Below, piece after piece: positions 9,656-44,084 of a stretch of DNA of 64,000 bases (position 1 is its first letter; each line of letters begins with the position of its first letter). A program made the translations under genes and the position numbers. The notes beneath the pieces were generated by a model that had not been told where the DNA came from, searched no databases, and worked only from the letters and a program-made list of their open reading frames with translations. This DNA comes from Eledone cirrhosa. Lineage: Eukaryota. The DNA lies in contig OZ024742.1 in the NCBI GenBank assembly GCA_964016885.1, forward strand, positions 70,122,001-70,186,000, given 5' to 3'.

Positions 9656-9900
9656 ATATAAAATACACAAGTATCAAAGTTATGTTCAAATCATTCAAAG
9701 CGATTAAATGAAATGAAATGATTTGAACATAACTTTGATACTTGTGTATTTTATATTCCTGCTCTGTAAAACACCTGATGTTCTTACATTGAGCTATTTC
9801 TCTTACTGGTAATAAGGTAGTAATAAATTACTGACCTTTCCTGTTTATAATTATTTATAGTATAGTATATAAACTATAAATAGTATCTTTATTATTATTA
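9656..9900 (+). mobile_element. Small fold-back element with right-side tail (second copy at 29975-30340)
   Basis: Arms 9656-9695 / 9717-9756. Tail tcctgctctgtaaaacacctga... recurs at ~30208-30340. TA-flanked. Confidence 0.7.
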
Positions 9901-9961
9901 TATATATATATATATATATATATATATTGAAAATTGCAAACTTGACTGTCACCACGCATTA

Positions 9962-10000
9962 TGAACCTGAAGATTGCGAAAGCATGAAAGTACTTGTTCA
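9962..10000 (+). ncRNA. Minimal hammerhead ribozyme motif
   Basis: UGAAC-CUGAAGA-UUGC(GAAA)GCAU-GAAA-GUAC-UU-GUUCA. Stem I UGAAC/GUUCA is perfect, stem III AGUACU is palindromic, cleavage triplet CUU. The stem II closing pair is U-U (non-canonical). Confidence 0.7.
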
Positions 10001-10197
10001 ATTAACACTTAACATTTAATATTCTATCATATTATTTCATTATAATACCATTATAAATTTTAAAGGATTGTAAATAAAACGAGTAAATCAGACAAAGTTG
10101 GAATTCCTCTTATTAATATATATATATATATATATATATATATATATATATATATATATATATATATATATATATATATATATATATATATATATAT

Positions 10198-10406
10198 AAC
10201 GAAGGAAATGTGGTAAGGAACCAGGTGGACCATAACGCACCAAAGTACTCAATACTTGAGGTAGTAGAGTGGGTAATAGGAACCAGTAAGACCCCGACAG
10301 CTGAGCTCAAGCCGTTTCGACGGCTAATTCTGGACTGGATTAGCCAGTCCAGAATTAGCCGTCGAAACGGCTTGAGCTCAGCTGTCGGGGTCTTACTGGT
10401 TCCTAT
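10198..10406 (-). mobile_element. Small fold-back element with left-side tail (second copy at 27108-27300)
   Basis: Perfect 63-bp arms 10276-10338 / 10344-10406, 5-nt loop attag, ~78-nt tail 10198-10275, (TA)n on both sides. Confidence 0.8.
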
Positions 10407-39790: not shown

Positions 39791-42080
39791 CTCATTAATA
39801 AATAAATACATCCATGAATTACATTATTTTGATTTGCAAAATACAGGTTAAAATCGCGGGGTGGGGGCACATACACACACAGATATATTGCTATATATAT
39901 ATATATATATATATATATATATATATATAGGGTTCAATCCGTAACGTCAGATCCCTTCTACTCTTTCTATTCAGTGTAAATATTTCTACTGTAAACACAT
40001 TTTTTCATATTTTGTTACATATATTTTACTCGAGTCTTCGTTTTTTTTGTTGTTTTTTTTGTTGTTGTTTTTTTTTTGGGGGGGGGGGGGCACTTTTTGT
40101 TTACTTTGCTTTAATCTCTCACGTTTTAACTGTTGCTTTCTTGTCTTTATATATATATATGAGTGTGTGTGTGTGTACATATATATATATATACACACAC
40201 ACACACACACACACACATATATATATATATATATATATATATATATATATATATATATATATATATATATATATATATGTGTGTATATATATATATATAT
40301 ATGTGTGTGTGTGTATATATATATATATATATATATACATACATGCACACATACTCATGTGTGTGTGTATTGTGTATTTACTCGGTTTGAATCGTTAAGC
40401 CATGATTTGTACTTTTATAGTGAATACCATCAAGTTAATGGCCTGAACTGAAGGTTCTATCTGTTTGTAGAGGGAGAACTGCTGCATATGTAAACGGAAG
40501 AGTAGGGGGAAATGGAGGGTAGTGAGCAAAAAGAACATGACAATAAAATAAAAACGTTATAAAGAGGAAGAGAAGAGCTGAGAGAAATGATAAAAGCAAG
40601 TAACATGATGAAAGTTTTGGGAGGAAGAGGGAGCAACAAGTAGTGGGGGTCGATGTTGTCGGGAGCATTGGGGTGAAAGTTGTAGGGGCCACACTGAGCA
40701 CCCAGCATTTAGCAGCGTAATGGCGTTTAAATTTTACATTCGTTTGCTATTTTGTTTTATCAGCAGATGCTTATTGTCAAGAAATAGTGCGATAATATAT
40801 TGTTCGTAATGTAAGACCCGCTCCAAACCAACTTCTCTTAGGGAACCAGATACTCCTTCAGCTTCAGCTAAAATATGTATAAAGTGAGATAACGTTCTGT
40901 GTGTACACTGTTTAATAGATATATTATGTTACACATTTTAATGGCAGTGGAGTGGCAGAAACAGCAGTGTTGGATTAGATGCAATTAAACAAGGTTGTTC
41001 TATTGTCCTGATGTTGTAAATTCAAATTAAGTACTCCTCAAATATTAGAGTCGGCTCAATCTACCACACCCTATCCCATATAAAATGCCAATATGAGAAT
41101 TCATTCATTATTTTGGAGAGATTTGTAAGGCGATGGATTGGCAGAATGGTGAGAGACTCGGACAAATTACTTTCTGGTATTTAGACACATTCTGAGTTCA
41201 AATCCCATCATGATCAGTTTTTCCTTTTCATCTTTCTGTGATCGATGTAATCGACTGTCTCCTCCCAACAAATTTTTGGCTTTGTGCCTGAATTAGAAAT
41301 CTTTTTTTGAGAGAAATTCTAAAATGGTAAAGTAATGGTTTCTGATTTAGGCACAAGGCCAGCAATTTTGAGGGAGGAGGAAAGACGATTAAATCGAGCC
41401 CAGTGCGTAACTGGTACTTTATTTTATCGACCCCATAAGGATGGAAGGCAAAGCTAACTTTGGCGAGATTTGAACTCAGAAAGTAAAGGGATGTAACTCT
41501 GTCCCGCCAAGCAGAGTGTCCGACGCTCTACCGATACTGCCAATCCACCGCCCTAAAATTAGTAAAATAATAAAAACAATCGAGTTTCATACAGTTTCAA
41601 ATACAAGTAACAGCTTTGTTTTTCATGCTTCCAAAGCAAGGTTGGATTAGGGGAAACTGCTGCTTTATACACAGCTCAATAATGGTGTCTAGCGACGTTT
41701 CCATTGTTTAACTGATAAGGCAATAGTATATAACAACTGAAAGTGAAATAATACATTAAAAAGTCAGTTAACTTCTAAACCTGAACCTTGTTTAAATTTT
41801 AATTGTCTAAACTCTAAATAGCAGTAAACAATATAAGCAAATTATTTGCATATAACTAGGGAAAGAAGCGGGAAAATGCAAATTTTCATAAGAATTGTTA
41901 TTCATTTTCTTATATGCCACTGGAAAGGACTCTATGGTACAAACCTTCCACTGATACCTTTAGCGTGTGCTTATTTTGTTTCATCGTTATTGTGGTCCTG
42001 CTACAGAGGTTTTTCAATATAATTTCTTATTTTGTTACAAATTCGTAGCCTTGTGCAAATTTGGAACAAAAACATGTATT

Positions 42081-42250
42081 ATTATTTTCAGTAATGCACT
42101 GGTTAATTGCTGGCCTTGTGCCTAAAGTAGAAACAATTATTTTCAGTAATGCACTGGTTAATTGCTGGCCTTGTGCCTAAAGTAGAAACAATTATTTTCA
42201 GTAATGCACTGGTTAATTGCTGGCCTTGTGCCTAAAGTAGAAACAATTAT
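42081..42250 (+). repeat. Three tandem 55-bp copies of the SINE 3' end
   Basis: cagtaatgcactggttaattgctggccttgtgcctaaagtagaaacaattatttt starts at 42089, 42144 and 42199. Confidence 0.9.
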
Positions 42251-43712
42251 TTTTATTACAAATAAACCTGTGCCATCAATAATGATGGGAATAGCGTTGA
42301 ATGTATAATTGTTTCTACTTTTGGCACAAGACCAGCAATTAACCCAGTGTATTACTGGTACTTTATTTTATGGACCCCGTAAGGATAAAAGGTAAAGTTA
42401 ACCTCAGCGGGATTTGAACTCAGTACGTAAAGGGACGTAACTGTGCTGCAAAGCATGGCGTCCGACTCTCTACCGATACTGCCAATCAGCGTTCAGGATT
42501 GGTATGCCATATATACCAGAATTACCGGATTTATTAACAATCATACAAACTGAGAAATTTGTGTTTTGATAAATAGTTTGCATAAGAGAAGCCCTATAGC
42601 TTATGTTGATTAGAGATACGTGCATGTGATTAAAGACGAAAATGATACTTTGATCATTCATTTCTAGGATATAATTACATTGATATTCAGCATGTATGTA
42701 AAAATGACATACAGGATTACATGTATGAGTAACTTTGGAGAAATAATTATTTACAGGAGCAAATGTGGGGTTAGAACCCAGGAATTTGTTATTGGAATGT
42801 AAACTTCTTATTGTAGCAACATGTCTCGTATATGAACTGCATTATGTTCATGTTTGTGCGTAAATAACGACTATAATATACATATATGGACTGTTAAGAA
42901 TCGAACTATGTTGCTCTTGATGGTCGAGAAAACTTGTTAAAATGTTTTGTGTAGCAGGCAGAAATTGTGAGAAAGAAGGTTCTGCGAACTCATTGGTGTG
43001 TACATGCATATCAGTATATTAATATCATTATTGAGGGAGAAGGATTTGACAGACTCGATAATGTGGCATATTTAGTCCGTCAGCTGCTTTCATACTACTG
43101 CTTGGCTCTTAACTACCTTTATCAGAAGAGTTTATTCTACTACAAGTATTCGGGTCATATCGTAGTTCTGGGGATAATAACACCCTCCATTACTATCAAA
43201 GCTGCAACAAAAAAACATTAGCGTACCTTTTCAACCTCTCACTAAACCATAAAAAGTAAAAGAAAATAAATTGAGTCTCTTTACAATCTCGCCCAACTTT
43301 GTTTTCAGCTATTCAGAGTTGATGAAATAAAGAACCAGTCAAGTATTAGTCCTGGTAGACAACATGTTCTCAAAACAACTAGAACTATGCTTAAACTAGA
43401 AAATAATATCAACATTATATTGTTTGCAATAAAAGCGTAAACGTAAAGTGAGTACAGACGCACACAGTACACATACTAATACACTCATACTAGTACATAC
43501 ACTCACACAACACACAACATACACACACACATATATCTTCTTCTTCTTCTTGCTCGACGAGGCTGGGGTCATCCTAAGCCAGCGATCCCAATGCATCGTC
43601 GTGCGTAGAGCCGACCAGGTCCACCAGCTCCCTCCATAGCAGAGCCCTGAGGACCATAAAAAAACATCAGATGGGACTAACATGTTTTTATATATATATT
43701 ATATATATATAT

Positions 43713-44084
43713 GTATTGTTAATTTTGGGGAGGGCCATGTTGCCAATAAAGCACACACTATTTCATTTTCAATTCGGTTTTATTATTAGTTCGTTCTCTT
43801 ACGTAATTATCAAAGTTCTTTCGTCACACATTCTGGGATCTCAACAATAATTATTTGTTTTCTTCTTTGTCTCATCTTCTCTTTTTTCTGGTCTTATTTG
43901 ATGATGTAGCAGAATGTGAGACGAAAGAACTTTGTCAATTACTTAAGATAACGAACTAATAATAAAACAGAAGTGAAATTAATAGTGCATGTGTTTTTAT
44001 TGGCAACATGACCCTACACAAATATAGCAATACTTGTTTCAACTCATGATTTCATATCAAGAATTTTGCAAAACAAATTCACAC
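43713..44084 (+). mobile_element. Non-autonomous fold-back relative of the large PLE
   Basis: Arms 43713-43835 / 43910-44033. Ends and tail are colinear with 3564-3600 and 9495-9575. Degenerate hammerhead at 43898-43937. Confidence 0.8.

Follow-up and report, generated by a model that had tools for sequence, protein, structure and literature searches.

Small palindromes in TA repeats of Eledone cirrhosa are short head-to-head insertions of Penelope-like element ends, together with a single family of non-coding ribozyme repeats that shares their signature

Inverted pseudo-long terminal repeats (pseudo-LTRs, pLTRs), a tail on one side only, solo pLTRs and targeting to (TA)n have already been described for Penelope-like elements (PLEs) in the accessible text of earlier accounts (PMC3846280, PMC8557442, PMC8969392), where the head-to-head, one-tailed architecture is a hallmark of the group (also PMC11167929). 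The origin of the inverted pairs and tails is stated as an open question in the available parts of PMC8557442 and PMC11167929. The latter study deals with the anole Poseidon element PAc in vitro, where both strands were nicked and extended, and reverse transcription started at two internal sites bounding the tail. Non-LTR retrozymes are recognized in sequence by tandem monomers of 150-450 bp with a type I hammerhead (PMC7229834), and the published case for PLEs as their helpers is built on shared ribozymes, co-occurrence and pLTR homology (PMC7229834; preprint 10.64898/2026.07.22.740005). Here we followed up eleven sites in a 64-kb stretch of Eledone cirrhosa DNA (contig OZ024742.1, positions 70,122,001 to 70,186,000), hereafter the window, which is dense in (TA)n runs and belongs to a genome of 3.0 Gb. 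An earlier reading of the letters alone, hereafter the sequence-only reading, had taken these sites for a candidate non-autonomous class mobilised by PLEs. The small TA-repeat palindromes are short head-to-head insertions of PLE ends, plus one family of non-coding ribozyme repeats with the same signature. The repeats are real, but they form no new class and belong to known PLE biology.

Eleven fold-backs sharing one architecture with a large PLE palindrome had been proposed, and for ten of them the description held. Self-BLAST of the window, run after microsatellite masking, recovered inverted pairs at ten of the eleven sites with E values from 1e-12 to 0, the arms of the small pairs differing by 1-16%; the pair at 29975-30340 was visible only by mapping on the family reference. 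Each site was mapped on a natural genomic copy of its own family, and ten consisted of head-to-head arms with the 3' ends outward, lying between (TA)n runs and carrying a tail of ~33-145 nt on one arm. Site 14443-14730 was not a fold-back, since its 49-bp inverted pair (14463-14511 / 14681-14729) belongs to two insertions of family G with 3' ends facing each other across (TA)n. The sites fall into nine families, A and D being represented twice and B, C, E, F, G, H and I once. The sequence-only reading was right about multiple families and overstated their independence: sites 10198 and 27108 are both A, 9656 and 29975 are both D, and 43713 (H) is ~80% alike the end and tail of the large PLE. 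The outward polarity that it had read from hammerhead motifs was borne out by the two descriptor matches within the named sites, at 27579 (+, family F) and 35325 (-, family E).

The genome was searched with each family, 40 candidates being scored per search out of 24-2,871, and selected loci (L numbers) were extended. Parents bearing an open reading frame (ORF) were found for eight of the nine small families, with 95-99% identity where measured. By sequence, these eight are identified as the pLTR or 3' end of ORF-bearing PLEs of this genome, six of Hydra type and two of Neptune/Nematis type; the idea of a single non-autonomous class is thus not supported, and only family B acts as a dedicated ribozyme passenger. 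Partial tandems of the form pLTR-ORF-pLTR were seen for A in L201, D in L293 and I in L284. Families E (L202, L205, L074), F (L198, where the endonuclease (EN) end is followed by 1 kb of untranslated region and F), G (L294) and C (L203, an EN-bearing ORF end beside a C-type end) adjoin ORF ends, and relatives of H adjoin P-like ORFs at ~48% identity. A single ORF with reverse transcriptase (RT) and C-terminal GIY-YIG was present in the window copy of family P, L201, L284, L293, L294 and others. This large P insertion (3564-9580) has a tailless arm at 3564-6542 (-), a tail arm at 6543-9525 (+) and a 55-nt tail on one side (9526-9580), with a 5'-truncated RT and GIY-YIG ORF read outward on both arms (6475-9003 + and 4088-6616 -). 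Against Pfam the ORF gave only a weak RVT_1 match below the cut-off (E 2e-4); YVDD and GIY-YIG-like motifs were present, together with a CX4CxxC linker and two Cys placed between GIY and YIG. In L274 family P is arranged in tandem with its own pLTR ahead of the ORF.

All clade calls were motif-based, using the motifs listed in PMC8557442. The Hydra set (RWK-type, DKT and CxCX5C, with CCHH absent) was complete in the parents of A, I and G, while D gave no clean CxCX5C match, E no DKT match in the pieces examined, and F was represented by its C-terminal end only. A first guess, that the parents of A, D, E, F, G and I were Penelope/Poseidon, was dropped after this check. Of the Neptune/Nematis motifs (CX2-5CxxC linker, two Cys within GIY-YIG), P had both and H the linker; the parent of C had the two Cys in GIY-YIG and a linker with its last Cys replaced. 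The parents of P, H and C are accordingly classed by motif as Neptune/Nematis type, a label covering either clade.

Insertions of family P range from 0.18 to 6 kb and use the same two 3' ends (reference positions 2980 and 3035) and essentially no others, so the small insertions appear as the short end of one continuum. Two classes of 3' ends were found also in families I, F, D, G, E and C, the tail being the stretch between the two ends. Among 176 same-reference pairs, 146 of the 150 classifiable ones had exactly one tail (three had two, one had none, and 26 were unclassifiable); most pair queries contained the tail, which favours finding at least one tail and does not favour finding no second one, and the duplicate filter was sequence-based only, so that a few loci may be counted twice. 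The fixed outer end, with two 3'-end classes in each family examined, the turn point varying between copies and the one tail per insertion agree with the earlier view that these are PLE retro-products and not miniature inverted-repeat transposable elements (MITEs). Same-family arms were joined in 204 of 205 head-to-head junctions. In five families the two arms of one insertion diverged less from each other than did arms of different insertions (A, 0.027 against 0.078; I, 0.014 against 0.047; F, 0.048 against 0.080; E, 0.044 against 0.067; B, 0.048 against 0.083), which together with the same-family joins indicates that both arms came from one source. In the sole junction of different families (L201:1501-5467), a complete element of family A is attached to an arm of family C that has a 26-nt fold-back. 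Joining between families was rejected as a general phenomenon, as this case is explicable by nesting or deletion and an apparent A-to-B-like join in L010 failed the same scan. In one region, L086-L088 (G000:C11:42912746-42913924), an entire fold-back insertion of family E was tandemly triplicated together with its TA flank.

With a probability of about 0.72, we favour the reading that the small elements are the short end of the PLE insertion range, made by two separately primed and then joined complementary DNAs (cDNAs), and that family B is mobilised in trans by the same machinery. The PLE protein complex would nick both target strands in (TA)n, and two DNA copies would be primed from two fixed sites in the terminal repeat of the element, the tail being the interval between these sites. 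Most of the start sites carry 2-8 nt of A/T-alternating sequence. Each cDNA would either stop early or run off the 5' end of the RNA, and end-joining through microhomology or short insertions would then link the free ends of the two antisense cDNAs. Snap-back of one cDNA may be an occasional, minority route, and run-off at the RNA start would give stubs of fixed length consisting of the pLTR only.

A position compatible with such run-off was seen in family A. A short unbiased genome search with this family returned nothing, and copies met incidentally, outside the targeted matches, were used instead, a set in which a few targeted loci, retrieved again, and the window also figure. Forty-three of the 75 incidental arms end within a 7-nt span at one base, here called +1, and 10 extend further upstream. 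In L201, +1 falls on the A of the Initiator-like motif TTAGT, and TATTTAAA, a TATA-like box, lies 29 nt above it. The stubs begin at +1, without the upstream box, and the solo arms of L011, L028 and L029 end at the same wall with no partner arm. The wall suggests run-off at the RNA start, and in Drosophila Penelope the promoter lies within the pLTR (PMC2377424). Arm ends of family A do not pile up at the predicted hammerhead cut. In families I, F, E and C the modal ends lie at or near pyrimidine-pyrimidine-A, a pattern less clear than in A and based on few incidental arms. By eye, a hammerhead-like stem II with a non-canonical core encloses the TATA-like box and +1 of L201 (1751-1860) in its loop, so that an RNA starting at +1 would be without the 5' half of this fold. 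A query of RNA data with family A listed no RNA source.

Family A was also followed in raw restriction-site-associated DNA (RAD) short reads from three runs of a second study that is labelled with the same species name, and in contigs of one run. Strand-switch joints were found in the raw reads, both 3' ends ran into (TA)n, and there were also joints from the pLTR +1 to inside the tail. Coverage fell off abruptly at either edge of the pLTR core, in the reads as in the contigs. The core was covered ~13,000 times against ~30 for the ORF leader in reads, and 3-4.8 million against 6-10 thousand in contigs, with a promoter-containing tier between; reads that end at fixed AATT sites distort the RAD depth, and contig depth does not stand for copy number.

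This depth profile could also arise if the small elements were a self-propagating non-autonomous class, in which stubs are transcribed and recopied as passengers of PLEs, in the manner of short interspersed elements (SINEs); family B, with no attached ORF in 57 loci and with a nested piece in its window copy that recurs in no other match of one search, would suit it too. We regard this as unlikely. Eight of the nine families have ORF-bearing parents of high identity, the family A stubs start at +1 and so without their TATA-like box, and the junctions differ from copy to copy, which argues that the composite palindromes were not amplified as units.

The inner ends of the arms bear on how the pairs were joined. 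In the 146 one-tail pairs, the tail arm was longer in 25, the tailless arm was longer in 46 (19 from the F and G sets), the arms did not overlap in 23 (20 from those sets), and they were symmetric within 8 nt in 52; the F and G queries favoured unequal and non-overlapping junctions and inflate these two classes. Each arm had sequence missing from the other in 69 pairs, 39 of them from the F and G sets. The earlier idea that copies were converted to hairpins on insertion therefore stands for a minority only. Pairs with unique sequence in each arm could come from a single snapped-back cDNA only through a later central deletion. The junctions (n=175) showed overlap in 79, blunt joining in 15 and inserted bases in 81, and this mixture, which end-joining would give, together with the in vitro extension of both strands (PMC11167929), favours two cDNAs joined head-to-head. 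At the L030 junction a 32-nt insert resembles the common SINE-like repeat, and poly(A/T) runs occur at family A +1 junctions in L209, L095 and L288; these suggest template jumps and untemplated additions.

The rival that accounts for both arms with a single cDNA, which snaps back and copies itself, is resolved by the endonuclease so as to leave a tail and later suffers central deletions that make the arms unequal, we consider improbable; it is close to the self-priming idea in the accessible text of PMC3846280. It would explain the 6-nt loop of the window PLE, which matches the parent sense sequence, the symmetry of those arms at 3 kb, the 204 same-family junctions with minor variants common to both arms, and the window copy of family B with the same nested piece in both arms. 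It fits poorly with the 69 pairs holding arm-unique sequence on both sides and the 23 without overlap. Unequal arms were moreover already present in 6 of 7 long-reference junctions of young P copies, which are 99-100% identical. Symmetric pairs of family A are accounted for by the common 5' wall, and the solo arms reach that wall with no partner.

Several points nevertheless weigh against joining of two cDNAs. The arms of the window PLE end within 6 nt of each other at 3 kb, which needs snap-back or a shared stop; 38 of the 52 symmetric pairs are family A pairs at the wall; and unequal arms could arise by later central deletion of perfect palindromes. A 5' wall is missing in families D and P, and the incidental copies of C, E, F and I show only a weak one (2-4 arms of 10-22). 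To these are added the query bias in F and G and the skew of the RAD and contig depths given above. We put forward only tentatively, as somewhat short of an even chance, the stronger proposal that PLEs integrate by an obligatory two-cDNA reaction. In it, a dimeric protein would prime on opposite strands at both of the sites bounding the tail, pLTR stubs lacking a promoter would flood the genome through run-off at the RNA start and outnumber coding copies by hundreds of times, and the same reaction would mobilise the non-coding hammerhead retrozyme.

Long-read fold-back chimeras in the assembly could produce a 6-kb palindrome that is 99.9% perfect, but they are very improbable here: the arms of the small elements differ by 1-16%, the tail rule holds across loci, and the strand-switch joints in raw short reads of another study show that, for family A, the structure is not an assembly artefact. 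DNA-transposon MITEs that duplicate a TA target, suggested by the short, high-copy units with inverted ends and TA flanks, are refuted by variable lengths and turn points, the absence of symmetric terminal inverted repeats, one-sided tails, solo and tandem copies, hammerheads and contiguity with RT/GIY-YIG ORFs.

Family B differs from the other families. Its 309-nt monomer contains a type I hammerhead, and a full monomer has the end of another one upstream of it. Among 60 paired arms, ten are longer than 400 nt; L297 has two predicted cut sites, and the hammerhead descriptor passes in L127 and L149. No PLE ORF was attached in 57 loci, taken from at least 1,600 candidates. Among 30 head-to-head pairs, mostly TA-flanked, 20 had one tail, two had none, none had two and eight were unclassifiable. 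The window copy (13965-14347, tail 13965-14009) has arms that both start at the predicted hammerhead cut, and both contain the same ~60-nt nested piece of (TA)n and foreign sequence. Run-off at the hammerhead cut was considered as a general rule and rejected: it fits both arms of this copy, and a second B sample gave no pile-up, although that query required upstream sequence. Folded as a circle, one old copy did not differ significantly from pair-shuffles (z = -1.1). On its other features family B fits the sequence description of a non-LTR retrozyme and bears the PLE insertion signature, and it is likely a retrozyme mobilised in trans by PLEs.

The remaining sites of the window are as follows. 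Family D, a Hydra-type pLTR, occupies 9661-9897 (the tailless arm at 9661-9699, the tail arm beginning at ~9704 and the tail at ~9752-9897) and 29979-30334 (tailless arm 29979-30188 (-), tail arm 30187-30334 (+)); the second is head-to-head as proposed, but with ~15 nt of arm overlap it is more an inversion than a palindrome. Family A, also a Hydra-type pLTR, is found at 10199-10403, where the tail arm 10199-10338 (-) and the tailless arm 10344-10403 (+) are separated by a short junction insert and both start at the Initiator-like +1, and as a diverged copy at 27108-27296 (tail arm 27108-27245 (-), tailless arm 27244-27296 (+)). The Hydra-type family G insertion at 14445-14511 has a non-overlapping head-to-head junction, with a tailless-arm remnant at 14445-14467 (-) and a tail-only arm at 14463-14511 (+) sharing 5 nt; tail-to-tail with it stands the separate 90-nt, tail-only insertion at 14681-14770 (-). 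The Hydra-type family I insertion at 22234-25342, reported as a small element at 22231-25340, is indeed head-to-head, but measures 3.1 kb. Its tailless arm from 22234 (-) is at least 1.7 kb long, and the tail arm 24849-25342 (+), with tail 25206-25342, is interrupted by a SINE-like repeat at 24959-25131. In family F, of Hydra type (27332-27680), the tail arm 27332-27514 (-) is accompanied by a longer tailless arm 27506-27680 (+) with the type I hammerhead at 27579. Family C, a Neptune-like pLTR (31485-31897), has a tail arm at 31485-31705 (-), a tailless arm at 31708-31897 (+) and a tail of ~33-39 nt. Family E, of Hydra type (35159-35530), consists of a tail arm at 35159-35368 (-), with the type I hammerhead at 35325, and a tailless arm at 35355-35530 (+). 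Family H, an old relative of P (43713-44084), has a tailless arm at 43713-43835 (-), a tail arm to 44033 (+), a tail at 44034-44084 and, by eye, a degenerate hammerhead core near 43898.

The type I hammerhead descriptor gave six matches in the window against 0-1 in each of 20 block-shuffled windows. Four lie outside the named sites, at 9967 (+), 10774 (-), 13909 (-) and 29849 (-), and are probably ends of further PLE families. Within pLTRs the descriptor passes E and F; family A has hammerhead-like stems without the CUGAnGA core, family I has the core without a passing fold, and features in P and H were read by eye only. An Rfam scan of the window gave no match at gathering score and no hammerhead family among the 150 of 208 matches listed. 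Further solo arms were seen for F at 3436-3498, A at 28263-28316 and G at 37044-37073. At 10424-10774 a solo tailless G arm passes via a short overlap into an H-like antisense copy, by template switch or deletion. The SINE-like repeat is abundant, occurring also at 18890-19014, 29591-29685, 42089-42487 and 57655-57992, with a local tandem and inverted cluster at 42081-42357. Other retroelements are an RT ORF with C2H2 zinc fingers (19262-20809, -) and a broken endonuclease-RT long interspersed element with an upstream ORF (58348-63026, -).

Candidate stubs number in the thousands in this genome, come from at least ten families, and provide both statistics on junctions and a simple substrate for tests. 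They resemble MITEs or microRNA hairpins and are open to misannotation, many sub-threshold microRNA matches having appeared in the window scan. Family B supplies evidence for PLE-driven retrozyme mobility in the form of an insertion signature, and if the same two-cDNA reaction does mobilise it, this would be direct genomic proof of PLEs as helpers of animal retrozymes. Three points may be new, namely the numerical argument for twin priming, a wall at the start site that gives a large stub excess, and a retrozyme family with the PLE signature; no prior account of PLE twin priming or stub excess was found in a search that left most subscription papers, Repbase entries and preprint supplements outside.

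L1 twin priming uses one primer on each of the opposite target strands and yields an inversion whose parts are joined by microhomology. In PLEs, by contrast, start sites lie at fixed internal positions, and the arms generally overlap and so form inverted repeats. With canonical EN-bearing PLE insertions, as far as the accessible accounts go (PMC3846280, PMC8557442), our insertions share the head-to-head inverted 5'-truncated copy, the tail at one end, the pLTR-ORF-pLTR order, solo pLTRs and, by descriptor in families E and F, the pLTR hammerhead. They differ in tail length, ~33-145 nt here against the published 30-40 bp, in the predominance of pLTR-only stubs, and in that arm asymmetry was counted. 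The Hydra clade (PMC8557442) is matched by RW[R], DKT, the CxCX5C linker, the missing CCHH, CxxC and CxH at the EN end and (TA)n targeting in the parents of A, D, E, G and I, and partly F, with the reservation that assignment here is motif-based; at least six such families occur in this one genome. Anole PAc (PMC11167929) likewise has an AT-rich target, a product length set by the template 5' end and two tail-bounding start sites. Its tail ends inside the ORF, whereas here it ends 50-150 nt before the ORF. The available text of that study leaves the inverted pair unexplained and reports no target homology, while in Eledone most start sites carry the short A/T-alternating stretch. Family B, finally, is like the non-LTR retrozymes in its tandem monomer of ~300 nt, its type I hammerhead, its lack of an ORF and the PLE as proposed helper (PMC7229834; preprint 10.64898/2026.07.22.740005). 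To what is published in the accessible parts of these papers it adds, as read from genomic sequence, the PLE insertion signature itself: head-to-head arms, one tail and TA flanks.

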